From positions 283,032 to 347,031 of the forward strand of contig CAZYUH010000001.1 in the NCBI GenBank assembly GCA_964650645.1: DNA of 64,000 bases. The letters run 5' to 3'. Made by a program: the position numbers and the translations under genes. Of this stretch, positions 11,180-22,872 are shown piece after piece; the stretch's first letter is position 1, and every line of letters starts with the position of its first letter. The notes under the pieces were generated by a model. The model saw only the letters and a list, made by a program, of their open reading frames with translations. It was not told the DNA's origin and made no database searches. Source of the stretch: an uncultured Candidatus Saccharibacteria bacterium (lineage in GTDB: Bacteria; Patescibacteriota; Minisyncoccia; Phycocordibacterales; SBAW01).

Positions 11180-12010
11180 ATGGATATAACCGCGCTTGCC
11201 AGGGACGGGTTCGTCTCAGTCGCGTATCCGGCGGCCCTGCGGCCTGTCGTGGCTAAAGCGATGGGTTCTTGGCAGGAGTTCTGCACCTTGCCGGACAGGA
11301 AGAAGAGCCTGCTTTCCGGCGGCGACCGGCTCAGGGATCTGGGCTACATGCGCCGGCAAGACCGGGGGAAGCGGGCCGACAACAAGGAGCTCTTCCATGC
11401 AAAGCTCTCCACGCTCGACATGCTCAACGGGCAGGCGAAGCTTCTTGAGGATAGGCGCGCGCTTGAGTTCATGTACGCCACGAGCGAGCTTATAGTGGCG
11501 GTATTGCCGCTTATTCGCGAGTTTGCTGCGGATGTGGAGAGCCGCTTCGGTCTCCCTGGCTTTGCCAAAGAGGTCGAGCAAAGCCAGCGGCATTGGACCT
11601 TCCGGTACCTCCACTACCTGGGCGGCGAGATGCTCGCGCATCCGCACGCCGACCGGGGCGGCTTCACCTTCCATATGTACGAGGATGCGCCGGGCGGAGA
11701 ATACCTTGACCATGGCGGTGCGTGGCAAGCGTGGCCTGTCGATCATGAGCGGACTATTATCTTCCCGAGCATGGGGTTGCAGTACCGCTCGCGCGGCAAG
11801 TTGAAGGCCTTGTGGCACCAGGTGGTGCCGACGCCGGAAACCCGCGTTAGCGGGCGGTATTCCATGGTGGCGTTCATAGACTTCGCCATGGGTCATCGCT
11901 ATAACGACGCGATAAGGAGGGTTCAGGATTTCAGTCCGGGCTTTAACTACGCCATGGGACGGGAAGAATTCGAGAGCCTTTTTATCCCTGCAGAATCGCA
12001 GACGGTTTAA
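11180..12010 (+). CDS. 2OG-Fe(II) oxygenase superfamily protein (HxD...H...RxS)
   Basis: HPHAD (an HxD motif), downstream His residues, and RYS (RxS). The ATG at 11180 is preferred over the TTG at 11117 given in the track. Confidence 0.55.
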   Translation: MDITALARDGFVSVAYPAALRPVVAKAMGSWQEFCTLPDRKKSLLSGGDRLRDLGYMRRQDRGKRADNKELFHAKLSTLDMLNGQAKLLEDRRALEFMYATSELIVAVLPLIREFAADVESRFGLPGFAKEVEQSQRHWTFRYLHYLGGEMLAHPHADRGGFTFHMYEDAPGGEYLDHGGAWQAWPVDHERTIIFPSMGLQYRSRGKLKALWHQVVPTPETRVSGRYSMVAFIDFAMGHRYNDAIRRVQDFSPGFNYAMGREEFESLFIPAESQTV

Positions 12011-12171
12011 CGCTCAATGCGCGGCTTCCAAGCCGCGCATTATTTTTATGGAAGGATAGGGTGATTTTTGCTATAGTGCTGTCAATCCGCAAGGATACGC
12101 GTTCTGGAGAGATGCTAAGAACGCTCGTTCGGGGTATTCAAACGCAAGCGCGTTTGCTGCCAGTTCCGCTC

Positions 12172-12244
12172 GCGCCTATAGCTCAGTCGGTAGAGCAGCT
12201 CCCTTTTAAGGAGACGGTCCCTGGTTCGAGTCCAGGTGGGCGCA
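12172..12244 (+). tRNA. tRNA-Lys (anticodon TTT)
   Basis: Cloverleaf: a GCGCCTA/TGGGCGC acceptor stem, a GCTC-AGTCGGTA-GAGC D-arm, a CUUUUAA anticodon loop, and a GGTTCGAGTCC T-arm. A rho-independent terminator follows it. Confidence 0.9.
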
Positions 12245-12249
12245 CAAGG

Positions 12250-12278
12250 TCAAAAAGGCGGACCGCTCCGCCTTTTTG
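12250..12278 (+). terminator. Rho-independent terminator after tRNA-Lys
   Basis: AAAAAGGCGGACCGCTCCGCCTTTTTG. Confidence 0.8.
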
Positions 12279-12285
12279 CATGCTT

Positions 12286-12376
12286 GTGCGGGCCGGAGCG
12301 TTGTATCGCATTTGCGGCACCGCGAGGCAGGGTCGTGCGGCAATTTGTACGACGGTACAAATTGAACGCCTGACCA
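12286..12376 (+). repeat. Hairpin element, copy A (a degenerate member of the tRNA-associated repeat family)
   Basis: GCCGGAGCG, hp1, CGCGAGGCAGGGTCGTGCGGC, hp2 (AATTTGTACGACGGTACAAATT), then GAACGCCTGACCA. It lies directly after tRNA-Lys and its terminator. Confidence 0.7.
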
Positions 12377-12411
12377 CTCGTGCAAACCGGTCCGACTTGC
12401 GGCAATGGGAA

Positions 12412-12879
12412 TCAGCGCAGGAGCGCGTACAGCGCGACGCCGCAGGCGACGGAGACGTTGAGCGAGTGCTTCTGCCCGCGCATGGGGATTTCAAGCACCT
12501 CGTCGCACAGCGCGAGTTCCTCGGGCGCGATGCCGTCCACCTCGTTGCCGAGCACGAGCGCGATCTTCTCACCCGCTTCGGGCTTGTAATCGAATATGTC
12601 CGCCGCGCCTTCCGCAAGCTCTATCGCCAGCACTGTGTAGCCGTCGGCCTTAAGCGCGGCAATAGCGTCGCGCAGTTCCGGCTCGCGCGAGTAGGGGACG
12701 AAGCGCTGGGCGCCAAGTGCCACCTTTGCAAAATCGGCGCGCTCGCGGCCCGCGGGGTCGAGATGGTCGGGAGTGTAGCCGCACAGCACGATGCGCCCCA
12801 CCCCCGCGCCGTCGGCGGTGCGGAACATGCTCCCCACGTTGTGGGCCGAGCGGATATTATGAAGCACGAGGACCGGCAT
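12412..12879 (-). CDS. SpoU/TrmH family RNA 2'-O-methyltransferase
   Basis: The SPOUT motifs HNVGSMFRTADGAGV, LVLGNE and SLNVSVA. Confidence 0.8.
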   Translation of the reverse strand: MPVLVLHNIRSAHNVGSMFRTADGAGVGRIVLCGYTPDHLDPAGRERADFAKVALGAQRFVPYSREPELRDAIAALKADGYTVLAIELAEGAADIFDYKPEAGEKIALVLGNEVDGIAPEELALCDEVLEIPMRGQKHSLNVSVACGVALYALLR

Positions 12880-12897
12880 GCGCCCACACTAGCAGAT

Positions 12898-13293
12898 TTA
12901 CAAAGGAAGGTCTTGCGCGAAGGCGCCCGCGCCAGAAAGGACGAGCGAAAGCGAGATGACGAGCATGAGGAGCCCGGCGGCGCGGCCCAGCGGGAAGAGG
13001 AGCGGATAGCGGCGCGCCCAGAACGTGTGCTTGAGGGAGATGAGGGCGCCAACCAGGGCGGCTACCTGCGTGTACAGTCCTATGACGAGCAATGCGGCCA
13101 CGGCGGCATGCGCCGCCACGGAGAACCATACCCACCAGCCGCCGCGGCCTACGACCGGCAGGTCTACCTGCGCTATTTGGTCGCGGCGGGCCCATTGCAG
13201 GTACGCGGCGGCCGCGAGCGCGGCGGCGAGGCCCAAGCGCAGCAAAAGCGGCGCGAGGAAGGGGATGAGGAGGCCGGGGAATACGTTCAGCAT
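12898..13293 (-). CDS. Small integral membrane protein (DoxX-like topology), hypothetical
   Basis: A 131-aa ORF with four predicted TM helices. Confidence 0.45.
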   Translation of the reverse strand: MLNVFPGLLIPFLAPLLLRLGLAAALAAAAYLQWARRDQIAQVDLPVVGRGGWWVWFSVAAHAAVAALLVIGLYTQVAALVGALISLKHTFWARRYPLLFPLGRAAGLLMLVISLSLVLSGAGAFAQDLPL

Positions 13294-13295
13294 GG

Positions 13296-13520
13296 CTATT
13301 GGTTCGCGGCGGGAATCATGGGGTTAGGCTGGCCCACCTCCGGGCCGTAGGCGTTGCCGGGGCCCACGGGCGCGGGGGGTGCCAGGAACATGCCGCGCAG
13401 GTCGGAGCGCTCAGGCCCGCCGTTGGCGAACCAGAGGATTACTAAAATGGCCAATATGCCGAGGATGGAGAGCGCCGCCTGGGCCGCAGTCTGCCCTCCT
13501 TCTTTCTTTTCTTCTGCCAT
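13296..13520 (-). CDS. Small membrane protein, hypothetical
   Basis: A 74-aa ORF with a single TM helix (LSILGILAILVILWF). Confidence 0.35.
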   Translation of the reverse strand: MAEEKKEGGQTAAQAALSILGILAILVILWFANGGPERSDLRGMFLAPPAPVGPGNAYGPEVGQPNPMIPAANQ

Positions 13521-13569
13521 GGTTTGGTCGAAATTAGGCCGCGTAACGTCCTTATGACGCGGCGACCCT

Positions 13570-14823
13570 TTAAGTATACCCGAGCTTTATAAGCTCTTCT
13601 TCCGCGACCTGCGCGTCGCTCCAGGCCTGCTTGGCGCCGTTCGGGCCCATGATGTAGGGGTCGGTGCCCTTGCCGGTTATGAGCACCGCGTCGTCCGCGT
13701 CCTTCGCCTCGGCCAGCGCCTCGGCGATAGCCTGGCGGCGGTCCATGGTGACGCGCGGCGCCCTGTTCGTGAAGCCTGCCGAGAGCTCTTCGATGATTTT
13801 CTTCGGGTCCTCGTCGTACGGGTCCTCGTCGGTGAGTATCGCGATATCGCACATCGCGTCGGCCATGGCGCCCATCTCGGGGCGCTTCCATGCGTCGCGC
13901 CCGCCGCCTGTCGAACCCAGCACGCACACGAGGCGCTTGCCCGCGCCGGCGTAGGTGTCGTACAGGGCCTTGAGGCTGTCGGGCGTGTGCGCGTAGTCGA
14001 CGACGACCGTGAACGGCTGGCCCTGCTCGATGCGCTGGGCGCGGCCCGCGACCGGCTGGACGCGCTCGAGCGCCTGCTTCATCTTTTCCGTGCCGAGCCC
14101 GAGCGCTTGGCCGAGCGCGAGCGCGGCGAGGCAGTTCTTGAGGTTGAACAGGCCGGGGAGGGGGACGGAGAACAGGACGTTCTTCCAGACGAAGCGCGCG
14201 CTCCTGTCGTCGGCGGTGTAGGGCTCGGCGTCCTTCAGCGAGAACGGCGCGCGTATGTCGGCGTCGACCGCGAGGAACTCGGCGCCGTACGCGTCGTCGG
14301 CGTTGGCCACGATGATGCGCGGGCGCTTGGGAGAGGCCGAAACCGCGCGAGCGAGCGAGAGCTTCGCGTCGGCGTACGCCTCGAAGCTGCCGTGCCGCTC
14401 GATGTGCTCGGGCGCGAGGTTGGTGAACACGAGCGCGTCGAGCTCCACTCCGGCGTGGCGGTGCTGGAGCGCGCCCTCGCTCGTAAGCTCCACGACGGCG
14501 TGCGTGCATCCGGCGTCGGCGGCCTGCCGCAGGAACTTCTGCAGGTAGCCGCGGCCGGGCATCGTCATCTTAAAGAGGTTGCGCTCGACGGCGTCGCCTA
14601 TCATGAAGCGGATGGTCGAGGCGAGCGCCACCTGGTGGCCGGTGCCGGCGAGCATGTGGCGTATGATTTCCGAGGTGGTGGACTTGCCTTTGGTGCCCGT
14701 GACGCCGATGACGACGAGCCGGCGCGAAGGGCGGCCGTACCACCACGCGGAGCCGTGGGCCCATGCCAGGTGGTAGGCGCTGAGCAGCCAGTCGGGCGTC
14801 ATGGAAAGTATGAGATTCTTCAT
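13570..14823 (-). CDS. Mur ligase family protein (MurE-like, lacking the usual N-terminal domain)
   Basis: The P-loop VTGTKGKSTT, a DYAHTPDSL motif and a Mur ligase C-terminal domain. At 417 aa it begins directly at the central domain. Confidence 0.7.
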   Translation of the reverse strand: MKNLILSMTPDWLLSAYHLAWAHGSAWWYGRPSRRLVVIGVTGTKGKSTTSEIIRHMLAGTGHQVALASTIRFMIGDAVERNLFKMTMPGRGYLQKFLRQAADAGCTHAVVELTSEGALQHRHAGVELDALVFTNLAPEHIERHGSFEAYADAKLSLARAVSASPKRPRIIVANADDAYGAEFLAVDADIRAPFSLKDAEPYTADDRSARFVWKNVLFSVPLPGLFNLKNCLAALALGQALGLGTEKMKQALERVQPVAGRAQRIEQGQPFTVVVDYAHTPDSLKALYDTYAGAGKRLVCVLGSTGGGRDAWKRPEMGAMADAMCDIAILTDEDPYDEDPKKIIEELSAGFTNRAPRVTMDRRQAIAEALAEAKDADDAVLITGKGTDPYIMGPNGAKQAWSDAQVAEEELIKLGYT

Positions 14824-14831
14824 CGGTGTGG

Positions 14832-15425
14832 TTATGCGGCGCGGCGCGTACCCAGGCGGCGCAAGGCGGCGCCCAGTCTTTCCTTAATGTTGCCCGCGCC
14901 TTCCGCGCCGATGGCGCGCAGGGCCTCGCGGCTCTCCTGGGAGCGGTAGCCGAGCGCCATGAGGGCCTCGATGACCTCGCCGTCGTCGCCCGACAATGTG
15001 TCGGCTTCGGCGGGCCTCTGCGCCTGCTCAAGCGAGAACGCGTCGCGCAGCTCGACCACGATGCGCTCGGCGCTCTTCTTGCCGATGCCGAAGACCTTGG
15101 TGAGCGCCGCCGCGTCGCCCGCGGCTATCGAGCGCTTGAGGCTCTTTATGTCCGATACGTTGAGCACGCCGAGCGCGGTCTTGGGCCCTATGCCCGACAC
15201 GCCCGTGAGCTGCCTGAAGAAGGAAAGCTCCTCCTTGGCGGCGAAGCCGAAGAGGTCCAAAGCGTCCTCGCGCACCGAAGTGTGTATATATAAGGAAAGC
15301 AGCGTGCCCGGCGGGGTGGAAAGAGTATAGAAGGGGACCCGTACCGCGTAGCCCACGCCGCCCACCTCGATGAGTCCCATGCCGTCCTCTGAGCCGCCCC
15401 AGGTGCCCGTGAGCTTGCCTATCAT
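14832..15425 (-). CDS. ruvA: Holliday junction branch-migration protein RuvA
   Basis: MIGKLTGTW... with HhH motifs (GIGPKTA, GIGKKSAERI) and a C-terminal domain III. Confidence 0.85.
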   Translation of the reverse strand: MIGKLTGTWGGSEDGMGLIEVGGVGYAVRVPFYTLSTPPGTLLSLYIHTSVREDALDLFGFAAKEELSFFRQLTGVSGIGPKTALGVLNVSDIKSLKRSIAAGDAAALTKVFGIGKKSAERIVVELRDAFSLEQAQRPAEADTLSGDDGEVIEALMALGYRSQESREALRAIGAEGAGNIKERLGAALRRLGTRRAA

Positions 15426-15518
15426 GCGTATAAGTGTACAGGCATCGCGGGCCGGGTGCTAGCCAAACCCCTCAGCCTATTGCCTAAAACGCCCCTGTGC
15501 GGTAGTATCCGCGTACAT

Positions 15519-15764
15519 ATGGCAATTACCAAATCGGCAAAGAAGGCCCACCGCCAGTCCCTGCGCAAGAAGGCCCAGAACGCCAAGCGCCGCGACGGCC
15601 TGCGCACGGCCATGAGGACCGCCCGCACGGGCGAGAAGGGCGACGCGAAGACCCTGTCCGAGGCCTACAAGGCTATAGACAAGGCCCTCAAGCGCGGCAT
15701 CATAAAGAAGAACACGGCGGCCCGCCGCAAGGCCCTCGCCTCCAAGCTCCTCAAGAAGGCCTAG
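15519..15764 (+). CDS. rpsT: 30S ribosomal protein S20
   Basis: MAITKSAKKAHRQSLRKKAQNAKRR is a typical S20 N-terminus. The ORF in the track is extended upstream of this start. Confidence 0.85.
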   Translation: MAITKSAKKAHRQSLRKKAQNAKRRDGLRTAMRTARTGEKGDAKTLSEAYKAIDKALKRGIIKKNTAARRKALASKLLKKA

Positions 15765-15765
15765 C

Positions 15766-15792
15766 AAAAACTCCCCGTCCGGGGAGTTTTTG
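15766..15792 (+). terminator. Rho-independent terminator after rpsT
   Basis: AAAAACTCCCCGTCCGGGGAGTTTTTGG. Confidence 0.8.
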
Positions 15793-15810
15793 GTATATAG
15801 TCCTGGAGTA

Positions 15811-15883
15811 CGCTCCTGTCGTTCAATGGATAGGATGCCTCCCTCCGAAGGAGGCGATGCAGGTTCGATTCCTGCCGGGAGCA
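15811..15883 (+). tRNA. tRNA-Arg (anticodon CCG)
   Basis: Acceptor GCTCCTG/CGGGAGC, D-stem GTTC/GGAT, anticodon stem CCTCC/GGAGG with loop CUCCGAA, and T-arm GCAGG-TTCGATT-CCTGC. Coordinates may be off by 1. Confidence 0.85.
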
Positions 15884-15926
15884 CAGCGTTTACTAAACAC
15901 GGTTTCTGGGTTAATCTTGCCTTGAC

Positions 15927-15998
15927 GCTCCCGTCGTTCAATGGATAGGACGCAAGCTTGCGGAGTTTGTGATGTAGGTTCGATTCCTACCGGGAGCA
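15927..15998 (+). tRNA. tRNA-Arg (anticodon GCG), a tandem paralog of the preceding tRNA
   Basis: Same scaffold as the neighbouring tRNA. The anticodon stem CAAGC/GUUUG has one G-U pair, and the loop UUGCGGA has U33 and anticodon GCG. The T-arm is GTAGG-TTCGATT-CCTAC. Confidence 0.7.
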
Positions 15999-16425
15999 CA
16001 AATCAGACACAAAACCAGCCCTGCGGCTGGTTTTGTGCTATTTGTGAGCCGGAGCGATGATTCGCCAGCGGGCGAATCCGCGAGGCAGGGTCGTGCGGCA
16101 ATGCGCGCGACGGCGCGCATTGAACGCCTGACCAAAAGACACAAAGAACCGCCTTGAGGCGGTTTTTGTGCTTATGTGCTGGCCGAAGCCATGTCCTGCA
16201 CTTGCAGGACGGCGAGGCGGGGTCGCGAGGCGTTTGCGCGACGGTGCAAACGAACTCGTGACCACAAAAAACACAAAACCAGCCCTGCGGCTGGTTTTGT
16301 GCTATTTGTGAGCCGGAGCGATGATTCGCCAGCGGGCGAATCCGCGAGGCAGGGTCGTGCGGCAATGCGCGCGACGGCGCGCATTGAACGCCTGACCAAA
16401 AGACACAAAACCGCCTTGAGGCGGT
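15996..16425 (+). repeat. Modular array T-E-T-E-T-E-T. Terminator-like hairpin modules (ACACAAA-stem-loop-stem-TTTGTGCT) alternate with hairpin elements B (16033..16124), C (16165..16254) and B' (16296..16387). Segments 15996..16124 and 16260..16387 are near-identical direct repeats.
   Basis: Each E module is GCCGGAGCG, a variable hairpin with an ACTTGC-type loop, the conserved core hairpin CGCGA-GGCRGGG-TCGYG, a variable hairpin with a GACG-type loop, then GAACNCNTGACCA. Stems differ between copies through compensatory changes. Confidence 0.8.
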
Positions 16426-16452
16426 TCTGTGCTACTTGCGACTATAGTAAAA

Positions 16453-16932
16453 CTAAAGCCCGAAGAGTTCCGCGAGGTGCTCGCCCAGGTGGGCGTCCTG
16501 CTCGACCTCCTGCGCGTGGCGGCGCATGAAGGCGCGCACGTTCTGCGCGCGGGTCCCGACGCCAAGCGGTATCACGAGCTGGGGCGAGAGCATCCCGCTC
16601 GTCGTCACGAGCATCCGCGCCTCGCGGGCCTCGGTTTCGGGCTGGACCCAGAAGGATTGTATAGCGGAGAAGCGGTAGAGCGTGCCGTCCACGGAAAGCC
16701 CGCGGCTGTCGAGGCGCATGCTGTGCTCGCGGGGCCCGCGCGCGGCGAGCACGCCGATAGAGCCCGCGCCTACGGCGATGACGACCGCGAACAATATGTT
16801 GCCGAAGAACAGCGAGAGGCCCGCCGCCGCCGCCGCGCCCAGTCCCAGGCCCCAGTACCAGTCGGCGCTGCGCTCGCGGTGCTCGTGGGTGAGCACGTTC
16901 CAGGATATGCCTTGTCCTTCGTGGCCGCTCAT
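16453..16932 (-). CDS. Hypothetical membrane protein
   Basis: A 159-aa ORF from the ATG at 16932 with two TM helices. The track's upstream GTG start was rejected. Confidence 0.45.
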   Translation of the reverse strand: MSGHEGQGISWNVLTHEHRERSADWYWGLGLGAAAAAGLSLFFGNILFAVVIAVGAGSIGVLAARGPREHSMRLDSRGLSVDGTLYRFSAIQSFWVQPETEAREARMLVTTSGMLSPQLVIPLGVGTRAQNVRAFMRRHAQEVEQDAHLGEHLAELFGL

Positions 16933-16967
16933 TGCTGTAAGTATACCCCCTGCGCTAGTATGGGCGC

Positions 16968-17654
16968 ATGAGTATTTCACTGGTACTGGCGTGGGCGTGC
17001 GCGATAGGGGTGTCCGTCCTGGGCGCGGCGTACTGGGCGCGCCGCTCGGGCCGCTCCGACCCGCTCATGGCGCTCTTCGTCACGCTGGTGCTCGTCTCCA
17101 ACCTCGTCGCCGCCAAGATAGTCGGCTTCGATTTCCTTGTGGCGACGCTCTACGCGCCGGCCGCGACCGTGTTCTTCTCGGTGACGTTCCTCGTCTCGGA
17201 CATCATAAACGAGCGCTTCGGCCGCGCCGAGGCCCAGCGCGCCATCATAATGGCGACGCTCGCGCAGATAGCGTTCATCGCGTTTTCCGAAATCGCGCTG
17301 AGCGCGGCGCCGGCGCCGTTCTTCACGGGGCAGATAGCGTTCGAGGCGGTCTTGGGCGCGGTGCCGCGCATCGCGCTGGCCGGGCTCATCACGTTCCTTA
17401 TAAGCGAGTCGCTCGACGCGTACCTCTATTCCTGGTTCAGGGAGAAGACCGAGGGCCGGCACCTGTGGATGCGCTATGCGTTCAGTTCGCTCCCCGCGAT
17501 GCTCATCGATAGCGTCCTGTTCGTCGTGCTCGCGTTCGCCGGCGTCCAGCCCCTTCTGCCGCTCATTATCGGGCTCACGGTCATAAAGTACCTGGTGGGG
17601 CTCGCCAACGCGCCGCTCATGTACGCGGCCCGCGCGGTCCTGCGCGGGGAATAG
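16968..17654 (+). CDS. Queuosine-precursor transporter family membrane protein (YhhQ/DUF165-like)
   Basis: Multi-TM protein with FFSVTFLVSDIINERFG and a DUF165-like layout. A TAGTAT -10 lies 6 nt before the ATG. Confidence 0.6.
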   Translation: MSISLVLAWACAIGVSVLGAAYWARRSGRSDPLMALFVTLVLVSNLVAAKIVGFDFLVATLYAPAATVFFSVTFLVSDIINERFGRAEAQRAIIMATLAQIAFIAFSEIALSAAPAPFFTGQIAFEAVLGAVPRIALAGLITFLISESLDAYLYSWFREKTEGRHLWMRYAFSSLPAMLIDSVLFVVLAFAGVQPLLPLIIGLTVIKYLVGLANAPLMYAARAVLRGE

Positions 17655-17707
17655 GGGAGCTCGCCGTCCTGGCTAATCGCGGCATTGGTGATATAAGCTA
17701 CGTATAC

Positions 17708-17792
17708 GGAGGGGTGCGTGAGTGGTCGAAACGAGCGGTCTTGAAAACCGCCAGGCCGCAAGGCCTCGTGGGTTCGAATCCCACCCCCTCCG
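17708..17792 (+). tRNA. tRNA-Ser (anticodon TGA)
   Basis: Acceptor GGAGGGG/CCCCTCC, anticodon loop CUUGAAA, a long variable arm (CAGGCCGCAAGGCCT), T-loop TTCGAATCC, and discriminator G. Confidence 0.9.
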
Positions 17793-17805
17793 CCGCGTCA
17801 TATAT

Positions 17806-18216
17806 ATGAAACACATCGGCATAGATTACGGAACCCGCCGCATCGGCATCGCCGTCTCGGACGAGACGGGCTCTTTGGCGTTCCCACTCGGGGTCGTAAA
17901 GGCGGGGCAGGGGGCGCTTGAGGAGGTTGCGAGCATTGCCCGCGAGAACGGCGTGCAGAAAATCGTCATCGGCGAGTCGCGCGACAACAGCGGCAGGGCA
18001 AACGAGGTAATGGAGGACATCGAGCAATTCAAAAGAGATATCGAGGAGCTGACGGGGCTTTCCGCGGACTACGAGCGCGAGTTCTTTACGAGCGCGCTGG
18101 CGGCGCGCCAGTTCGCCCCGGAGGCGAAGTCGCGAAAAAAGAACCCCTCGCACGACGACCTCGACGCGTCGGCCGCCGCCCTCATATTGCAGAGCTACCT
18201 GGACAGGGTAAAGTAA
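17806..18216 (+). CDS. yqgF: Putative pre-16S rRNA nuclease / Holliday junction resolvase-like YqgF (RuvX)
   Basis: MKHIGIDYGTRRIGIAVSD... shows the RNase H-like YqgF signature. The ORF in the track runs upstream into tRNA-Ser and was trimmed. Confidence 0.8.
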   Translation: MKHIGIDYGTRRIGIAVSDETGSLAFPLGVVKAGQGALEEVASIARENGVQKIVIGESRDNSGRANEVMEDIEQFKRDIEELTGLSADYEREFFTSALAARQFAPEAKSRKKNPSHDDLDASAAALILQSYLDRVK

Positions 18217-18220
18217 GCGT

Positions 18221-18553
18221 ATGGACCCTATCTCCATAGACGACGTCAAGAAGGTCGAGATAACGGTGGGCGAGATACGGAGCGCCGAGCGCATCGAGGG
18301 GAGCGACAAGCTCCTGAAGCTCTCGGTGGACTTCGGCGAGGAGTCTCCGCGCCAGGTGCTCTCGGGCATCGGCCGCCACTTCGAGGACGTGCAGGCTTTG
18401 GTGGGGAAGCGTTATCCGTTCGTCACCAACCTGGCGCCCCGCACCATGATGGGCCTTGAGAGCCAGGCGATGATACTAGCGACCGGCGGCTCGGGCGAGG
18501 AGCCGTTCAATCTATTCGAAACGAAGGCGTCTCCGGGCGCCAGGGCGAACTGA
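18221..18553 (+). CDS. Stand-alone tRNA-binding protein (CsaA / Trbp111 / MetRS-C-terminal-like OB fold)
   Basis: A 110-aa protein with VGEIRSAERIEGSDKLLKLSVDFGEE... and YPFVTNLAPRTMMGLESQAMIL, typical of the Myf/EMAP-II tRNA-binding domain. Confidence 0.7.
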   Translation: MDPISIDDVKKVEITVGEIRSAERIEGSDKLLKLSVDFGEESPRQVLSGIGRHFEDVQALVGKRYPFVTNLAPRTMMGLESQAMILATGGSGEEPFNLFETKASPGARAN

Positions 18554-18554
18554 C

Positions 18555-19175
18555 ATGGAGGTGCTGGAGCATATAACGCCGCCGCCCAAGCGCACCCGGC
18601 TGTGGCACTGGTTCAGGGAGCACGCGAGAAGCCGCATGGCGCTGGCGTGGCTGGCGCTCATCGCCTTTACCGACACGCTGTTCTCTCCCATTACGGCCGA
18701 GGCGTTCCTGACCGCGCTCATGCTCGCCCATCGCGACCGCTGGCGCGCGTACCTGCCCGTGGCGCTCGCGTTCTCCGTGCTCGGGACCGTGACGGGGTAC
18801 TGGCTCTTCTATTTCCTGTACCGGTCGTTCGGCGAGGCCCTGCTCGCGTCGTGGGGCTACGCGGGAGCCTTTTCGGCCGCGCAGGAGCTCGTGGGCGCGC
18901 ATATCTTCACCGCGCTCCTCGTCGCGTCGTTCACGCCGCTCCCCGACAAGGTGTTCATCTACGCGGCGGGCATACTGGGCGCGCCGTTCGCCCCGTTCAT
19001 CGCGGGCTTCGCCCTGGGCCGGGGCCTGCGCATGAGTGCCGTCACGTACATCGTCTGGAAGTTCGGCGAGCCCGTGCTCGATATCGCGGACCGCTACTGG
19101 ATGTACGCCAGCGCGGCAGCCGTGGCGCTGTTCGCGCTGTATGCTATCTTGAAATTCCACCTGCTGCCCCTGTAG
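18555..19175 (+). CDS. DedA/YqaA (VTT-domain) family membrane protein
   Basis: A 206-aa multi-TM protein with DedA-like conserved Gly/Phe spacing. Its stop codon overlaps the 5' end of tRNA-Arg(TCT). Confidence 0.5.
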   Translation: MEVLEHITPPPKRTRLWHWFREHARSRMALAWLALIAFTDTLFSPITAEAFLTALMLAHRDRWRAYLPVALAFSVLGTVTGYWLFYFLYRSFGEALLASWGYAGAFSAAQELVGAHIFTALLVASFTPLPDKVFIYAAGILGAPFAPFIAGFALGRGLRMSAVTYIVWKFGEPVLDIADRYWMYASAAAVALFALYAILKFHLLPL

Positions 19176-19237
19176 TTAAATGGATATAACTGCGGACTTC
19201 TAAGCCGCTGTTCGAGGTTCGATTCCTCGCGGGGGCA
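19166..19237 (+). tRNA. tRNA-Arg (anticodon TCT)
   Basis: Acceptor GCCCCTG/CGGGGGC, D-arm GTTA-AATGGATA-TAAC, anticodon loop CUUCUAA, and T-arm CGAGG-TTCGATT-CCTCG. The anticodon stem has one A-G mismatch. Confidence 0.75.
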
Positions 19238-19240
19238 CAG

Positions 19241-19560
19241 AAAAAACACAAAGACCTGCCTTGAGGCAGGTTTTGTGCTTTTCTGTGGGGCGCAGCCATG
19301 TCCCGCACTGGCGGGACGGCGAGCCGGGGTCGCGAGGCGTTTGCGCGGCGGCGCAAACGGACTTGTGACCAAAGTACACAAACAACCGCCTTGAGGCGGT
19401 TTTTGTGACTTGGTGCCGGCCGCAGCGGTGTTTTGCACTTGCAAAACCGCGAGGCGGGGTCGCGAAAAGTTTTTGCGACGACAAAAACTTATTCGTGACT
19501 GTAAAGCAGGCGGTCGCCTTAAGCTCAAGGCAGGTTTTGTGCTTTTCTGTGAGCCGGAGC
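19241..19560 (+). repeat. Modular array between tRNA-Arg(TCT) and tRNA-Val: element D (19281..19372), element E (19412..19500), and a truncated copy (19525..19560)
   Basis: The same conserved flanks and core are present. Hairpins are GTCCCGC/GCGGGAC and GTTTTGC/GCAAAAC in hp1, and GTTTGCGCG/CGCGCAAAC and GTTTTTGCG/CGACAAAAAC in hp2. Confidence 0.8.
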
Positions 19561-19613
19561 GCCGCCGCGCGCTGATAGGAAAAAAGCCGCGTTTCTGCTA
19601 AAGTGTGCCGTAC

Positions 19614-19686
19614 GGGCGATTAGCTCAGTTGGTAGAGCAACTCTTTTACACAGAGAAGGTCACAGGTTCGAGTCCTGTATCGCCCA
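19614..19686 (+). tRNA. tRNA-Val (anticodon TAC)
   Basis: Acceptor GGGCGAT/ATCGCCC, D-arm GCTC-AGTTGGTA-GAGC, anticodon loop UUUACAC, and T-arm ACAGG-TTCGAGT-CCTGT. Confidence 0.9.
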
Positions 19687-19696
19687 CAGATGACAT

Positions 19697-19727
19697 GCGA
19701 AAAAACGGCCGGGGGCCGTTTTTTTGC
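19697..19727 (+). terminator. Rho-independent terminator after tRNA-Val
   Basis: GAAAAAACGGCCGGGGGCCGTTTTTTTG. Confidence 0.8.
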
Positions 19728-19734
19728 ATTGTGT

Positions 19735-19870
19735 CACTGTGCGGCGATACAGAACTCGAAAGCGAGCGCGGGCACCCGCCGAGCGCGGCGGGTCGCGCGA
19801 GCAGGGCCGAGAAATTTTTTGCCGCGTCGGCGGCAAAAAATGTTCTTGGCCGAGTCCTGTATCGCGACGG
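19735..19870 (+). repeat. Variant element copy H after tRNA-Val; it ends in a duplicated tRNA-Val 3' segment (GAGTCCTGTATCGC at 19849..19862)
   Basis: A core-like GCGGCGGGTCGCGCGAGCAGGG, the hairpin TTTTTTGCCGC-GTCG-GCGGCAAAAAA, then a 14-nt exact repeat of the tRNA-Val T-arm and acceptor 3' end. Confidence 0.55.
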
Positions 19871-19944
19871 CTGCCTTTGAATGCCTGGCCACGCATGGCC
19901 CCCGCCTCCTCGACTTAAAACTATAAGAACGCTACAGTGCGCGT

Positions 19945-20634
19945 ATGGAGCCCGTAATCCTGTTCGAGGACGACCATCTGGTGGTCGTCGATAAGCCGGC
20001 GGGGATGATCGTATACCCGGACGGCCGGCACGACTATCCGGCCCTTTCGCATTGGCTCGAGGGCCGCTACGGCGAAGGCGGCTTCTTCTTCGTGCACCGC
20101 ATCGACCGCGAGACGTCGGGCGCGCTGGTCGTCGCAAAAACGGAAGAGGCGTTCGAATTCCTCAAGGAGCAGTTCAAGGGCCGGCAGGTCAAGAAGACGT
20201 ACCGCGCGTTCGTGCACGGCACCTTCAAGGAAGAGCGGGGAATAATAGACAAGCCCATAGGCTCCAGCCGCGGCGGCGCGGGCCCGCGCTCGGCCAAGCT
20301 TTCCTACGGGGTGCAGCGCGACGCGGTGACCATGTACAAGGTGCTTAAGAGCCGGCCGCATAGCGGCGGGACGCAGGAGCCTGTCTCGTACGTCGAAGTG
20401 TTCCCCAAGACAGGGCGCACGCACCAGATCCGCGTCCATTTCGCCTCGGTGGGCCGGCCCATCATCGCCGACAGGCTGTACGGCGCCGGCCGCCCCGCGC
20501 TCCTGGGCTTTGAGCGGCTCGCCCTGCACGCGCTTTCCCTGGCAATCATCCACCCGAGCGGCCAGGAGATGGTGTTCAAGGCCCCTCTGCCGCCCGATTT
20601 CGCCGCGGCGGAAGCGCAATTGCAGGGCAACTAG
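19945..20634 (+). CDS. rluA: RluA-family 23S rRNA/tRNA pseudouridine synthase
   Basis: The catalytic motif HRIDRETSGALVVAKT and a length of 229 aa. Confidence 0.8.
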   Translation: MEPVILFEDDHLVVVDKPAGMIVYPDGRHDYPALSHWLEGRYGEGGFFFVHRIDRETSGALVVAKTEEAFEFLKEQFKGRQVKKTYRAFVHGTFKEERGIIDKPIGSSRGGAGPRSAKLSYGVQRDAVTMYKVLKSRPHSGGTQEPVSYVEVFPKTGRTHQIRVHFASVGRPIIADRLYGAGRPALLGFERLALHALSLAIIHPSGQEMVFKAPLPPDFAAAEAQLQGN

Positions 20635-20742
20635 CTTTGTGTTACAGTCTTGTGGCAATATAAGCAGCTCTAGGCGCTCTTATATATCCGTCGCTCGCTC
20701 GGAAATAAAAGCGGGGCTTATATTTCTCTCACTCGCTAGGAT

Positions 20743-21237
20743 ATGAAAACGGCAGTCAAAACCTCTACGGTAGACATGGCAGCGCGCAAGGACCTCGGCA
20801 TCCGCTCGGGGGACACGGTGCGCGTCTGGCAGAACATCGTCGAGCTCAAGACCGGCAAGGCCGCCAACAAGAAGGAGGTCACCACCAAGAACGTCCGCCG
20901 CCAGGCGTTCGAGGGCCTTGTGCTCGCCGTCAAGCACGGCACCGAGGCGGGCGCCACGTTCACGGTGCGCAAGGTGTCCGGCGGCATCGGCGTAGAGAAG
21001 ATTTTCCCGCTGTACTCGCCGATGATCGACTCGGTCGAGGTGCTGCGCCGCACCCGCACCCGCCGCGCCAAGCTCTACTTCATCCGCGACAAGGCCGCCC
21101 GCGACCAGAAGCGCGCGATGCGCCGCCAGATGAGCGTGACGCCCAAGAAGGCGCTCGCCGATGAGGCTCCGGCAGAGGAGCTGGCAGCCGAGGCTCCGGC
21201 CGAGGCGGTAGAGGCAGGGGCAACTGCCCAGGAGTAA
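20743..21237 (+). CDS. rplS: 50S ribosomal protein L19 (with a C-terminal Ala/Glu-rich extension)
   Basis: [12 protein letters not shown]...[41 protein letters not shown] matches the L19 signature. Confidence 0.85.
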
Positions 21238-21242
21238 GAAGA

Positions 21243-21268
21243 ACCGGCGCTCGCCGGTTTTTTTAATT
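21243..21268 (+). terminator. Rho-independent terminator after rplS
   Basis: AACCGGCGCTCGCCGGTTTTTTT. Confidence 0.8.
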
Positions 21269-21274
21269 TTGCGT

Positions 21275-21303
21275 TTGAGAAATAGGGGAATATTGGGTAT
21301 AGT
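21275..21303 (+). promoter_or_regulatory. Sigma70-like promoter for tRNA-Leu: TTGAGA, a 17-bp spacer, then TATAGT
   Basis: Hexamers lie at 21275..21280 and 21298..21303. The tRNA starts about 18 nt downstream. Confidence 0.55.
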
Positions 21304-21320: not shown

Positions 21321-21404
21321 GCCCAGGTGGCGAAATTGGTAGACGCACTACCTTGAGGTGGTAGCCCCGGCAACGGGTTGGAGGTTCAAGTCCTCTCCTG
21401 GGCA
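21321..21404 (+). tRNA. tRNA-Leu (anticodon GAG)
   Basis: Acceptor GCCCAGG/CCTGGGC, anticodon stem CTACC/GGTAG with loop UUGAGGU, a long variable arm, and T-loop TTCAAGTCC. Confidence 0.9.
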
Positions 21405-21625
21405 CTAACGACACAAAGGCGCTCCCTGCGGAGCGCTTTGTGCGTTAGTGCCGGCCGCAGCGATGTTTTGCACTTGCAAAACCGCGAGGCGGGTTCGCGA
21501 GCGAATTTGGCGACGGCCAAATTCGACTTGTGAACGCAAACACGAATACTTTTGAACGCCTGACCAAAAAGACGCAAAGACCTGCCTTGAGGCAGGTTTT
21601 GTGCTTTAGTGCCCGAGCGAAGCCG
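21405..21625 (+). repeat. Array after tRNA-Leu: a T module, element F (21445..21571, with an extra partial 3' flank), a T module, and a truncated start of another element
   Basis: GCCGGCCGCAGCG, hp1 GTTTTGCACTTGCAAAAC, core CGCGAGGCGGGTTCGCGAG, hp2 AATTTGGCGACGGCCAAATT, then CGACTTGTGAAC ... GAACGCCTGACCAAAAAG. Confidence 0.75.
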
Positions 21626-22658: not shown

Positions 22659-22731
22659 GGTGGTCGTAGCTCAATGGTAGAGCCCTGGTTTGTGGTACCA
22701 GTTGTTGTGGGTTCGAGTCCCATCGATCACC
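22659..22731 (+). tRNA. tRNA-His (anticodon GTG) with an encoded G-1
   Basis: A G at -1 then acceptor GTGGTCG/CGATCAC, discriminator C, anticodon loop UUGUGGU, and T-loop TTCGAGTCC. Confidence 0.9.
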
Positions 22732-22734
22732 CCT

Positions 22735-22766: not shown

Positions 22767-22817
22767 TAAGAGGGCGGTCGAAGCGAGAGGCTTGAGCGTC
22801 TTGCGGTGGGACTCGAA

Positions 22818-22872
22818 AGCCGGAGCGATGCCCTGCACTTGCAGGGTAGCGAGGCGGGCGGCCTGGCCGCGC
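22818..22872 (+). repeat. Partial element copy G after tRNA-His and its terminator
   Basis: GCCGGAGCG, hp1 (CCCTGCACTTGCAGGG), then a degenerate core. Confidence 0.6.

Follow-up and report, generated by a model that had tools for sequence, protein, structure and literature searches.

What is the hairpin repeat that follows one tRNA gene after another in this 64-kb stretch of DNA (the window, by which we mean the whole stretch analysed), and why does it keep to that place? A preliminary description, made from the letters alone, had proposed a family of hairpin repeats beside tRNA genes. It had offered three candidates for their nature: a small RNA family co-transcribed with tRNAs, a processing or termination module, and a structured mobile repeat.

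Copies behind the tRNA genes of the window

The window was searched with a covariance model built from 81 sequences, three of them derived from the window itself. This search revealed nine significant copies with E values from 1e-8 to 1e-26; the best match that is not a copy reached E = 0.39. All nine copies are located on the plus strand, each downstream of a same-strand tRNA gene predicted by ARAGORN, and no copy was detected by the model in the 52 kb of the window that are devoid of tRNA genes. Thus, the proposed family is real. Seven typical copies scored 78-98 bits, the diverged copy behind tRNA-Val 47.6 bits and the copy behind tRNA-His 35 bits. The conserved centre GCGAGSCRGGKTCGYG was found in seven exact matches, all on the plus strand, at 12322, 16080, 16212, 16344, 19319, 19449 and 21484. 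The genes for tRNA-Ser and tRNA-Arg(CCG) (15812-15884, tRNA prediction) carry no copy behind them.

In every copy a 5' arm is the antisense of the 3'-terminal stretch of the gene before it, and two starting points occur, tRNA position 70 and the T loop. Pairing by arms of the acceptor-end class begins at tRNA position 70-71 and continues via C72-A73 into the trailer; in the T-loop class it extends from U54/C56 to the 3' end. The features that follow all lie on the plus strand.

The gene for tRNA-Lys(UUU) at 12172..12245 (ARAGORN; Rfam tRNA 68.4 bits) precedes the first copy. Its trailer at 12246..12291 contains a terminator hairpin and then the antisense arm CTTGTGCG, which pairs with the tRNA-Lys end CGCACAAG. 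Copy A (12292..12376; model match 12279-12388, 86.9 bits, E 2.8e-23) belongs to the acceptor-end class and has an A56/U63/C97 core.

The tRNA-Arg(GCG) gene at 15927..15999 (ARAGORN) heads an array of three copies. Sequence and pattern scan place a terminator-like hairpin with the loop CUGC at 16007..16047, together with the arm ATTTGTG, antisense to the tRNA end CACAAAT. Copy B follows at 16048..16134 (match 16035-16146, 97.4 bits). The next terminator-like hairpin (loop UUGA) is located at 16139..16180 and carries the arm CTTATGTGCT, which is perfectly antisense to the tRNA end as it occurs in strain L122, AGCACATAAG. Copy C (16181..16264; match 16169-16276, 92.9 bits) has a G56/C63/G97 core and GCC/GGC as its second helix. 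The hairpin (CUGC) and arm at 16271..16311 have the same sequence as 16007-16047, and copy D (16312..16398; match 16299-16410, 98.1 bits) is identical to copy B. Judged from these identities, copies B to D represent a 264-nt dimer of B and C that was recently duplicated in tandem. A further terminator-like hairpin (UUGA) at 16403..16433, again recognized by sequence and pattern scan, closes the array.

Behind tRNA-Arg(UCU) (19166..19238, ARAGORN) two copies are present. The terminator-like hairpin (UUGA) at 19246..19288 bears the arm TTTTCTGTG, antisense to the tRNA end CACAGAAAA, and leads into copy E1 (19289..19371; match 19276-19383, 77.9 bits), in which the first helix is flipped to GGC/GCC. 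A second hairpin with arm, recognized by sequence at 19376..19417, precedes copy E2 (19418..19501; match 19406-19513, 82.7 bits), which ends in GTGACTG and not in GTGACCA. At 19516..19563 a degenerate hairpin is followed by the start of a truncated copy, GTGAGCCGGAGCG, that runs into unrelated sequence.

The T-loop-class copy behind tRNA-Val(UAC) (19614..19687, ARAGORN) occupies 19743..19866 (match 19749-19864; RNAfold z = -6.1) and has an orthologue in L127. Its 5' strand, GGCGATA plus CAGAACTCG, is antisense to CGAGTCCTGTATCGC, the repeat of the tRNA-Val 3' segment behind the core, and the pairing of arm and repeat forms a closing helix of 15 bp. The base of its second domain is GCC/GGC, replacing GUC/GAC. 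Directly adjacent, at 19867..19891, lies the sequence GACGGCTGCCTTTGAATGCCTGGCCA, a 3' fragment of an older acceptor-end-class copy, a sign of nested insertion or replacement.

At the tRNA-Leu(GAG) gene (21321..21405, ARAGORN) a terminator-like hairpin (CUGC) with the arm CGTTAGTGCC, antisense to the tRNA end GGCACTAACG, was found at 21411..21452. It is followed by copy G (21453..21536; match 21441-21548, 82.8 bits), by an extra 3' fragment of a second copy ending in GAACGCCTGACCA (21537..21566) and by the closing terminator-like hairpin of the locus (21572..21605). The last copy, behind tRNA-His(GUG) (22660..22733, ARAGORN), is a decaying member of the T-loop class at 22774..22872 (match 22806-22881, 35.1 bits). 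It retains an acceptor-5'-like strand, GGCGGTCG, a hairpin with the loop CUUGAG and an intact first domain, and has lost the second domain by deletion. Its arm, GGTGGGACTCG, is the antisense of the tRNA-His T loop and T stem.

Fold and covariation of the core

The centre of the core pairs with the 5' strand GCCGNAGC and with the 3' strand YGAC, which results in two helical domains and a closing helix. Domain 1 consists of GCC/GGC, an internal loop GNA/GA, GC(N)/(N)GC and a variable hairpin. Domain 2 consists of GGUCGYG/..YGAC with an invariant G.U pair, and also bears a variable hairpin. The core strands GCCGNAGC, GCGAGGCRGGGUCGYG and YGAC are near-invariant, in part as a result of the search, since an exact pattern covering part of the core served to retrieve the loci.

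In the alignment of the 81 sequences 90.7% of the paired cells were indeed paired, compared to 34-44% with slid partners. Double-sided changes numbered 491 versus 146 in shuffles, and none of the 500 shuffles reached the observed value. Covariation was observed for the 5' GCC with GGC (the tRNA-Arg(TCT) copy has this helix flipped, GGC/GCC), for GCG/CGC, which changes to GCC/GGC, and for GGUCGYG with the 3' ..YGACC. Consequently, the preliminary description was right that the variable stems differ between copies and yet stay complementary, and the true compensatory changes identify a structured element and not a plain DNA repeat. The conserved core hairpin it had postulated (stem CGCGA/TCGYG, loop GGCRGGG) is possible on paper but had to be abandoned: it showed no double-sided change, its first pair is broken in 27 of the 81 sequences, and it excludes the covarying pairings.

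Among the variable pairs G.U/U.G were counted 53 times versus 16 times for A.C/C.A, and one G.U pair is present in all 81 sequences. Both observations point to folding on the sense strand. The positions R56, Y63 and N97 form a linked triple in the same alignment (G-C-G 53 times, A-U-C 24 times), a pattern that hints at a tertiary contact. The strand between closing helix and domain 1 is variable (CGA, CGG, AAA, AAG, TGA and others), and the interdomain strand reads R-G-G. For the acceptor-end class the closing helix is weak, with a median of 4 bp by strict count and 74.8% of the cells paired; this class may therefore not form a three-way junction.

Six copies from tRNA-Arg(UCU) loci were aligned. 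The differences between them are mostly compensatory; they are 96.8% paired, with 16 of 31 pairs changed on both sides. The flip of the first helix to GGC/GCC is common to copy E1 of the window and the same-tRNA copies in L124, L127, L130 and L035, thus to five of the six; L013 has the usual GCC/GGC. Compensatory change at one locus indicates selection on the resident copies. A purely selfish repeat does not need such selection, which favours a role for the host or a requirement in cis.

The near-invariant core (with conservation partly set by the exact-pattern search), the invariant G.U pair and the linked triple R56/Y63/N97 would suit a new self-cleaving and re-ligating ribozyme, although we consider this explanation rather improbable. 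The arm would bind the substrate, and the cut would fall behind ..GAC and in front of the following C, ahead of the target repeat. Tandem units would be cut to unit length as in hammerhead retrozymes or satellites, and the RNA would be the mobile intermediate. The target junction does lie at the foot of the helix formed by the arm. Furthermore, at least two other conserved cores, unrelated to this one, occupy the same junction with the same arm design, and different ribozyme classes are interchangeable within the same genetic contexts. Theta ribozymes adopt the nested double-pseudoknot fold of the HDV family and begin at the tRNA 3' end. These minimal HDV-like ribozymes offer a precedent, as they sit directly behind phage tRNA genes and process the trailer (PMC10879173). 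Like them, the element is a conserved structured RNA directly downstream on the same strand and is tied to the tRNA trailer; unlike them, it has hairpin domains side by side and a hairpin between tRNA and core, and its catalysis is putative. No HDV-family match was obtained with Rfam for the elements of the window or for the other cores at the same position.

Retrozymes and satellite repeats are small non-coding tandem units with a hammerhead three-way-junction RNA. The element shares with retrozymes the small non-coding tandem units and a conserved three-way-junction RNA, and they are a possible model for the arrays. It differs from them by the lack of a hammerhead core and of LTRs, by its bacterial host and by its tie to tRNA 3' ends. 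A three-way junction is possible, but its strands are variable, unlike a hammerhead core with its conserved junction strands CUGANGA and GAA and its UH cleavage site, and Rfam gave no hammerhead match. RNA circles with ribozymes have been described (PMC7761336). Further points against a ribozyme are that no Rfam ribozyme family showed similarity at E up to 5, that no reverse transcriptase gene is nearby (30 ORFs), and that group II introns are reported to be absent from Patescibacteria (PMC13011429).

In a wider version, to which we would assign a slightly lower and still small probability, the core and the two other cores would be new classes of small cleaving and ligating ribozymes. With the arm as internal guide they would constitute a protein-independent, RNA-guided cut-and-join mobile element. 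Such an element would attach to the 3' parts of abundant RNAs (tRNA, tmRNA, ribosomal-protein mRNA) and then become fixed in DNA, and the hairpin-element arrays would represent multimeric precursors cut to unit length.

Antisense arm, terminator-like hairpin and repeated target end

The module ACACAAA...TTTGTGCT had been described as a second, terminator-like module between the copies. Nine occurrences are present in the window, and most of them were flagged as terminator-like by a pattern scan. The module is not a separate spacer, however, since it forms a long hairpin with the 5' arm. In the acceptor-end class arm and hairpin often constitute one perfect stem of 17-24 bp, the 5' strand of which begins inside the tRNA acceptor strand, and the core starts one base past the 3' foot of the hairpin. 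The hairpin separates tRNA and core by 20-50 nt, and the loop between arm and target measures from 3 to more than 40 nt. Pairing of the arm extends to exactly two more bases of the tRNA (positions 70-71) in 43 of the 81 copies, and these bases covary with the tRNA (cg/cg, cc/gg, ac/gt, tg/ca, ca/tg). The pairing partner of the arm lies mostly downstream of the junction. Alternatively, ordinary terminators could have become perfect long hairpins through quasi-palindrome correction, with no guide present beforehand.

Since the terminator-like hairpin lies upstream of the core, it should limit transcription of the core from the tRNA promoter, and no sigma-70-like promoter was detected upstream of the cores. 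Some copies are found between two tRNA genes of one operon, for example in L047 and L057. Where the spacers between element and tRNA genes measure about 5-13 nt and contain no terminator, an element in such a position is almost certainly transcribed with both genes. Kissing of the CUGC and CAGCAG loops was also considered and was dismissed because the loops are not consistently complementary across loci.

Behind the core a 3' segment of the target, 4 to 85 nt in length, is repeated, and it may pair with the same arm to close a three-way junction. The arms of T-loop copies read as the reverse complement of two parts of the tRNA, T loop and 3' T-stem strand. Repeats of 15-31 nt which begin at C56 of the T loop were found behind tRNA genes at L018, L030, L047, L053, L056, L060, L074, L075, L097, L111 and L113, and the tmRNA gene at L008 shows the same layout. 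The repeats of the acceptor-end class comprise 4-8 nt at C72-A73. Behind a zinc-finger gene (L004) a perfect repeat of 32 nt is followed by a diverged, still open copy of the last ~70 nt of the gene; in L052 an element occupies the equivalent place in a homologous zinc-finger gene, with an imperfect repeat. The preliminary description had overlooked these most telling features: the antisense arm, the repetition of the target 3' segment and the existence of two insertion sites, one in the T loop and one at the acceptor end.

GACCA, which had been taken as the end of the element, has last two bases that vary with the target (CA or CG). Because they track the target, they are part of the repeated target segment and do not belong to the element. 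The tRNA-Val copies of the window and L127 end in CG, and the copy behind rplK ends in GGGTT. For the same reason a mimic of a CCA end or minihelix, with GACCA as discriminator plus CCA, was rejected. Reverse transcription of mature tRNA was discarded as well, since the repeats of CCA-less genes lack CCA and match the gene sequence (L030, L047). The gene-end copies at L004 do not differ specifically at adenines, which argues against a diversity-generating retroelement.

According to a 2002 account by Williams, integrase-borne elements reportedly use three sublocations in tRNA and tmRNA genes: the anticodon loop, the T loop and the 3' end. The elements described here resemble tRNA-targeting integrative elements in their position at the T loop or the extreme 3' end, in the use of tmRNA and in a direct repeat that leaves the gene intact. 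They differ from them in that only ~100-200 nt of non-coding sequence, without an integrase or any other gene, lie between the repeats, and by the covarying three-way RNA-type fold, the antisense arm, the repeat length of 4-85 nt and the sites in protein genes. The element might still be a folded site for recombination of single-stranded DNA, either a miniature integrative element or a site of the attC or CTX-phage type. A tyrosine recombinase or HUH enzyme acting in trans would join it at the T loop or 3' end, and arm plus repeat would recreate the target duplex. The positions, the use of tmRNA and the gene-restoring direct repeat are hallmarks of integrases, DNA hairpins tolerate G.T pairs, and both gene-end copies at L004 are open and differ like orthologues from different lineages. 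Nevertheless we regard such a site as improbable, and more so than either ribozyme reading: an element of ~100-200 nt encodes no recombinase and none was found nearby (30 ORFs scanned), direct repeats of 4-85 nt and arm-target loops of 3 to more than 40 nt are unlike a fixed crossover site, and compensatory evolution of resident copies is not expected of a site that is used once.

The tRNA-like features also allow the idea of a stable small RNA that acts in trans on a tRNA-like scaffold, borrows the enzymes of tRNA processing and has its own cellular target or protein partner. Around the core, both acceptor strands and a T-stem-like helix are present in T-loop-class copies at L030, L074 and L008 and, in the window, in those behind tRNA-Val and tRNA-His. 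A protein could bind to the conserved loops and core, and precedents exist in tmRNA and Y-RNA-like RNAs, which carry tRNA-like modules. We nonetheless consider this highly improbable. An acceptor mimic is missing from the majority of copies, which are of the acceptor-end class, many copies per genome have differing scaffolds, arrays and decayed copies occur, and an acceptor-like 5' strand is evident in only a minority of the T-loop copies examined. An acceptor-mimicking 5' strand as a general trait of T-loop copies was rejected for that reason; some of the automated boundaries are unreliable.

Distribution, strain differences and probable nature of the element

The family extends beyond this locus. 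A motif scan yielded more than 119 loci among the matches listed, and the model detected 144 matches in the motif-seeded loci of 100 searched sources, which comprise many lineages of Patescibacteria and two Elusimicrobia MAGs. Of these matches 98 are located within 130 nt downstream of a same-strand tRNA or tmRNA gene, 14 lie behind another copy and one is near a tRNA gene on the opposite strand. The chance expectation for such proximity is about 1.7% (213 tRNA/tmRNA genes in 799,246 nt). A copy is occasionally found behind a protein gene (rplK, a peptidase gene, a zinc-finger gene). Among 2.9 million viral contigs there were just two pattern matches, of which the model confirmed one as a true copy and did not confirm the other; a phage origin was therefore dismissed.

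The view that no known family has this architecture withstood the searches. With Rfam 15 at E up to 5 only tRNAs and noise were found in window positions 11500-23500 and nothing on the elements. At gathering scores the elements had no match in the whole window or in 18 loci, and in six further loci the other cores, which share this position, had none at E up to 0.5. No description of the element was found in the literature. The pair GGCAGGGU...AACGCCUG resembles what we take to be the P8-P9 region of E. coli RNase P RNA; as Rfam gave no RNase P match, the resemblance was treated as coincidence.

Strain comparison revealed differences of single units. Strain L122 lacks exactly one 132-nt unit which is present in the window and in L123 (hairpin, arm and copy B, about 16001-16132, with CA at both bounds), and the rest is almost identical. 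L125 has different elements behind tRNA-Val. In L130 the ATG of the next gene follows tRNA-Val directly; the corresponding interval in L127 and in the window holds element sequence, about 250-300 nt. A copy behind rplK is present in L127 and absent from the window, L122 and L130; behind tRNA-His, L127 and L130 have no element. Copies are variously nested, truncated or identical in tandem, with fragments at 19549 and 21537. Between 959 and 27557 a total of 30 ORFs were scanned; all are housekeeping genes or have no Pfam match, and no integrase, transposase or reverse-transcriptase gene was detected among them. The lack of a mobilising gene nearby fits a non-autonomous element.

One explanation of these findings is a cis-acting module of the host for the formation of tRNA 3' ends. 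Hairpin and core would mark the transcript for an endonuclease, or would terminate or stabilise it. The stem of 17-24 bp could be a substrate of RNase III, or the tRNA-like helix one of RNase P or RNase Z. Trimming and CCA addition would follow release of the tRNA, and the features that resemble mobility would be by-products of recombination between repeats. In line with this, position and orientation behind tRNA and tmRNA genes are strict, pairing of the arm invariably involves the last four bases of the tRNA or runs from the T loop to the 3' end, with covariation between the two, copies at the same locus evolve by compensatory change, and the element is present in many lineages of Patescibacteria. 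CCA-less tRNA genes require endonucleolytic 3' processing, and the tRNA genes of the window do not encode CCA, so that this requirement applies to them. Copies between tRNA genes of one operon (L047, L057) agree with the module too. It is at odds with the many tRNA genes that have no element (tRNA-Ser and tRNA-Arg(CCG) in the window, tRNA-Val in L130, tRNA-His in L127 and L130), with copy numbers that vary among near-identical strains, with decayed copies (the truncated tRNA-His copy, the fragments at 19549 and 21537) and with the same core behind rplK, peptidase and zinc-finger genes. Tandem arrays of up to three units are also hard to explain. Overall, we judge a processing module unlikely, though it deserves serious consideration.

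Among the three original candidates the structured mobile repeat fits best, on account of the one-unit strain difference, the filled and empty orthologous sites, the nested and truncated copies and the duplicated ends of protein genes. We give an even chance to the explanation that the repeats are mobile elements of Patescibacteria, small (about 75-130 nt), non-coding and dependent on their structure, that they form a family not described before, and that their sites are the 3' ends of tRNA genes, tmRNA genes and, in occasional cases, protein genes. The element is most likely non-autonomous and co-transcribed as the trailer of the tRNA. It would spread via a single-stranded intermediate, RNA or DNA, and the arm would select the target by pairing across the future junction. 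Joining would leave the gene intact, with its 3' segment on both sides of the element, and only such insertions would survive. After insertion the fold would be kept by selection, probably because the downstream repeat holds the antisense arm and keeps the tRNA 3' strand untrapped; long hairpin and core might also serve as the end of the tRNA transcript. Candidates for the catalyst are the conserved core and, acting in trans, a recombinase, a reverse transcriptase or a nuclease.

A mobile element of this kind has partial counterparts. REP and BIME sequences of enterobacteria and pseudomonads are imperfect palindromes of 20-40 nt with a GTAG head, which are mobilised by RAYT and found behind many kinds of genes. 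Like these, the elements are short structured repeats at the 3' ends of transcription units, single or in mosaic arrays, with compensatory stem changes and strain-variable copy number. Unlike REP, they possess a two-domain fold of 75-130 nt, long invariant strands and a target-specific arm, and they are almost confined to tRNA and tmRNA genes. The alignment consensus has no GTAG head, and the 30 scanned ORFs (959-27557) include no RAYT (IS200-like) gene.

Group IIC introns insert just after terminator hairpins, and group II introns and IS200/IS605 elements choose their targets by guide pairing. The core likewise starts just past a terminator-like hairpin, and the target is matched by a strand of the element. 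In contrast to group II introns, it has no intron domains and no ORF, is only ~100 nt long and has a direct repeat of the target. Non-autonomous IS200/IS605 elements and TnpB guide RNAs are marked by hairpins at the left and right ends, by insertion 3' of a tetranucleotide with no duplication and by tnpA/tnpB in the genome. Guide-like pairing as in IS200/IS605 is present, but so is the direct repeat; no IS605-associated Rfam family matched, and tnpA and tnpB were not found in the scanned region 959-27557. Introns of group I (P3-P9) and group II (domains I-VI) interrupt their gene with core domains; in the window neither Intron_gpI nor group-II families of Rfam gave a match, and the tRNA gene is uninterrupted and complete. 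The group I tRNA introns of Patescibacteria were rejected since size, position and structure all differ.

The element is also no MITE, which would carry its own terminal inverted repeats and a target-site duplication of one length, because its inverted repeat is locus-specific, being formed by the element arm and host sequence, and the direct repeat spans 4-85 nt. An attC site, a single imperfect hairpin with R''/L''-L'/R' boxes, is equally excluded by a consensus that has no R boxes (RYYYAAC / GTTRRRY) and by a fold with two or three helices; the neighbours are tRNA and housekeeping genes, unlike the cassette ORFs or intI beside integron attC sites. TIGR arrays consist of tandem 36-nt box C/D-like units with two spacers beside a Tas (Nop-domain) gene (PMC12045711). 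This candidate was rejected, since the units described here measure 132 nt on tRNA genes and no Nop-domain gene is nearby (30 ORFs).

At least two more conserved cores in the same setting suggest that such elements form an entire class. A new annotated RNA family could be founded on the alignment and the covariance model; they should aid the reading of pseudo-tRNA 3' fragments beside these tRNA genes and provide a strain-level marker. Patescibacteria make up a large part of bacterial diversity, and their tiny genomes leave little room for junk. Nonetheless, they retain a near-invariant folded element behind many tRNA genes. As a processing or termination module, the element would point to a new pathway of tRNA 3'-end formation in organisms from which much of the common machinery for RNA processing is missing. 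As a non-coding mobile element with a guide, it would represent a new way for a parasite of ~100 nt to pick its targets by pairing, with insertion that spares an essential single-copy gene, and it might be programmable.

Copies of the element and where they occur

The window is a chromosome segment with a G+C content of 62.7%, which was assigned to the Patescibacteria via its RuvX homologues; the nearest named sources are Paceibacterota and Adlerbacteria. Its gene content is that of ordinary housekeeping (polA, ruvABC, murein ligase, rpsT, rplS, nusG, rplK), and all eight tRNA genes within 12.1–22.8 kb are on the + strand. The conserved centre of the repeat has seven exact matches in the window, invariably on the + strand. 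A covariance model constructed from 81 members of the family, of which the window contributed three, revealed nine copies with E values from 1e-8 to 1e-26, the next match having an E value of 0.39. According to this model one copy is located downstream of tRNA-Lys and three downstream of tRNA-Arg(GCG) (B, 16048..16134; C, 16181..16264; D, 16312..16398). tRNA-Arg(UCU) is followed by two copies and the truncated start of another, tRNA-Val by one diverged copy and a 3' fragment of another, tRNA-Leu by one copy and a 3' fragment, and tRNA-His by one truncated copy. No copy was detected by the model behind tRNA-Ser and tRNA-Arg(CCG). The copies are nested, truncated or tandemly identical, B being the same as D. 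The terminator-like hairpin occurs nine times. These counts bear out the preliminary description of a repeat family that lies next to tRNA genes together with terminator-like hairpins.

When one genome per species was scanned for the exact pattern, more than 119 loci were among the matches listed. Nearly all of these belong to Patescibacteria (Saccharibacteria, Paceibacterota, Kaiser-, Nomura-, Adler-, Taylor-, Yanofsky-, Lloyd-, Niyogi- and Berkelbacteria), and two Elusimicrobia MAGs were also listed. About seven listed matches inside proteobacterial genes are due to chance, as judged from their flanks; of two matches on viral contigs one is a true copy according to the model. In the 100 searched sources, whose sequence G+C ranges from 33 to 74%, the model found 144 copies. 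Of these, 98 start at most 130 nt (median 36) downstream of a tRNA or tmRNA gene on the same strand, for which our own estimate from tRNA density gives a chance expectation of about 1.7%. A further 14 come after another copy, 10 are too close to a contig end for their context to be judged, and one is near a tRNA on the opposite strand. The tRNAs trailed by the element cover 15 amino-acid specificities, and tmRNA is trailed as well. Rfam holds no family matching the element and the literature searched gave no description of it, in agreement with the earlier statement that no described family was known.

Fold of the core and selection on resident copies

One and the same fold resulted from the alignment of 81 sequences, from RNAalifold and from explicit counting of pairs. 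Domain 1 consists of GCC/GGC, an internal loop GNA/GA, GC(N)/(N)GC and a variable hairpin. In domain 2 one purine and GG are followed by GGUCGYG, which pairs with ..YGACC, and by a variable hairpin; a G.U pair inside this domain is present in 81 of 81 sequences. Overall, 90.7% of the cells in the alignment are paired, compared to 34–44% when the partners are slid, and 491 double-sided changes were observed versus 146 in shuffles. Thus, the variable stems indeed covary as proposed for a structured RNA. A closing helix between the core flanks is possible, with 74.8% of its cells paired. The 'invariant' helices are confirmed by rare compensated variants: the first helix is reversed to GGC/GCC in tRNA-Arg(UCU) copies, and at the base of domain 2 the rplK copy of L127, a more distant relative, carries CCC/GGG and the window tRNA-Val copy GCC/GGC. 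At variable pairs G.U outnumbers A.C by 53 to 16; consequently, the folding strand is the tRNA-sense strand.

The central hairpin drawn initially (stem CGCGA/TCGYG, loop GGCRGGG) did not hold. It is built from invariant bases only, lacks compensatory changes and is incompatible with the helices that covary; single-sequence folding produced the two domains instead. It may represent an alternative conformer of the core. Alignment columns 56, 63 and 97 (purine, pyrimidine, base) are tightly linked, as G-C-G in 53 sequences and A-U-C in 24, and both core types are present in the window. This linkage may be due to a base triple or just to two old lineages.

Five of the six aligned tRNA-Arg(UCU) copies (window, L124, L127, L130 and L035) carry the flipped first helix; the sixth, from L013, has the usual GCC/GGC. 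The five copies sharing it therefore probably descend from one insertion. Among the six, 96.8% of cells are paired and both sides have changed in 16 of 31 pairs. Such compensatory change indicates that the fold matters where the element sits, and not only during movement. The hairpin and core would form the 3' region of a transcript, which would account for selection on the fold. Co-transcription with the upstream gene is likely because copies occur within tRNA operons, flanked by a tRNA gene on either side with about 5–13 nt of spacer. One main alternative to the guided insertion proposed below is that the element is a host processing or termination module, and another that it is a folded-DNA recombination site for a trans-acting recombinase.

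Pairing of the arm with the upstream gene

Two arrangements were observed. About 60 of 115 motif-matched copies, a set that includes some chance hits in coding sequence, form the acceptor-end class. Here the arm, directly 5' of the core, is antisense to tRNA C72-A73 and the trailer, and in 43 of 81 sequences it also pairs with exactly two preceding tRNA bases, positions 70–71, covarying with the tRNA. In many loci the pairing extends through the terminator-like hairpin to give a perfect stem of 17–24 bp (for example L012, L028, L035, L084, L096, L104 and L118). A short repeat CA(C)AAA comes after the core. None of the eight window tRNA genes encodes CCA; five have CA right after the discriminator A73 (12245, 15884, 15999, 19238 and 19687), so that their ends read ..C-A-C-A, which is the sequence paired by the arm of this class (..UGUG).

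About 26 copies make up the T-loop class. Their arm reads as the reverse complement of the T loop plus the T-stem 3' strand, and behind the core 15–31 nt of the tRNA, running from C56 up to the end, are repeated. Some of these copies have an acceptor-5'-like strand and a hairpin with the loop CUGC ahead of the arm, so that the whole looks like an acceptor/T minihelix whose loop contains the core (for example L030, L074, the tmRNA loci L008 and L102, and the window tRNA-Val and tRNA-His). Both classes can be read as a long hairpin whose 5' strand is the upstream gene end and whose 3' strand leads into the core.

We infer that the target is chosen by pairing of the arm across the future junction, with matches to two bases upstream and 7–20 bases downstream of it. 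Insertion would place the 3' segment of the gene on both sides of the element, and the gene would thus stay whole. Presumably only such gene-preserving insertions survive in genomes with single-copy tRNA genes. After insertion the downstream repeat and the real tRNA end would compete for the arm.

At L010:1980-2250 tRNA-Ser(GGA) is partly duplicated upstream of the intact gene, and a copy separates the D arm from the anticodon stem of this duplicate; the intact gene comes about 70 nt later. This may be a third insertion position and is not explained by the simple model. Two other tRNA-Ser-linked copies (L017, ~690-745, - strand; L079, ~1600-1650, - strand) have their tRNA-end repeat broken by a similar extra hairpin, CCUGCC..GGCAGG, between its T-stem and acceptor parts.

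Gain, loss and similarly placed elements

The window and L123 carry three copies behind tRNA-Arg(GCG). The near-identical strain L122, which comes from a sister sample and matches almost completely elsewhere, lacks exactly one 132-nt hairpin-plus-element unit (window 16001-16132 versus L122:8326-8340). CA stands on both sides of the unit, and the breakpoint is this shared CA just past the discriminator base; the next copy of L122 has an arm with perfect antisense complementarity to the tRNA end. In L125 RuvX and its flanks are almost identical to the window, yet a different element combination follows tRNA-Val.

The more distant relatives L127 and L130 have RuvX identities of 86% and 80%. Among these, only L127 has a copy between the two tRNA-Arg genes. 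Behind tRNA-Val, L127 and the window possess about 250–300 nt of terminator, element and element remnant, and in L130 the start codon of the next gene follows directly. The tRNA-His copy is decaying in the window and L122 and missing in L130; a still more degenerate stretch in L127 may be a relic of a copy. In L130 the tRNA-Arg pair and tRNA-Leu (3905-4171 and 13089-13316) are inverted relative to the window, each with its own element, so tRNA and element move as one block.

Copies also occur at protein genes. A minimal copy in L127 (18560-18690) starts 5 nt past the rplK stop codon; its arm is antisense to the final codons, and 17 nt of the gene end recur after the core. The site is empty in the window (26725-26800), L122 and L130. 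The element is also present at L004:3560-3950 and at L052:7300-7700, within the final ~70 nt of a zinc-finger (topoisomerase-like C-terminal) gene that has its end in two copies. In L004 the repeat is perfect over its first 32 nt; beyond these the second gene end has diverged but still forms an open frame, as would be seen had one copy come from another lineage together with the element.

Several known systems share single features with the element. Integrase-borne islands in tRNA and tmRNA genes are alike in insertion positions and the gene-restoring repeat, and REP/BIME in repeat-array behaviour. An element start right behind a hairpin and the proposed choice of target by base pairing are reminiscent of group IIC introns and IS200/IS605. 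Theta ribozymes are found behind tRNAs (PMC10879173) and so are alike in position; a self-cleaving ribozyme is the third main alternative. Wherever membership could be tested, the element lacked at least one defining feature of the known system, and it is therefore filed as a new kind. Its mobilising machinery may be a known one after all.

Four different genomes carry one and the same 25-nt hairpin, AGCAAGCAAACTGCTTTGCTTGCGT, immediately 5' of the antisense arm and beside either kind of core (L017:861-885, L028:53-77, L038:1782-1806, L102:7287-7311). The second core reads ..ACCUU, variable hairpin, AAGGUGUAC-AGAAUC-UGUAAG-GAUUC and is found behind tRNA genes (L001:2690-2900, L007, L028:50-220, L038:1780-1920, L055:380-560, L057:5560-5760, L077, L083, L104). 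Its 5' design is that of the element, namely acceptor-like strand, CUGC-loop hairpin and T-loop-antisense arm, then AAA; in L055 the junction lies before C56 with the repeat CGAATCCCTCAGCGCCCACA. The third core, GGGGUCGGG..CCCGYGGAGGAAGG..GGAAAACCGUGGG..GUGAGAUAGCGAAG, is situated between a T-loop-antisense arm and a tRNA 3'-end repeat behind tRNA-Glu (L003, ~5470-5590, + strand) and tRNA-Arg (L062, ~700-825, - strand). Neither core had a match in Rfam. At least two further cores, conserved and unrelated, are thus located where the element is, and they share its arm design and its junction before C56. The element may therefore belong to a wider class of small structured elements attached to tRNA 3' ends in Patescibacteria.
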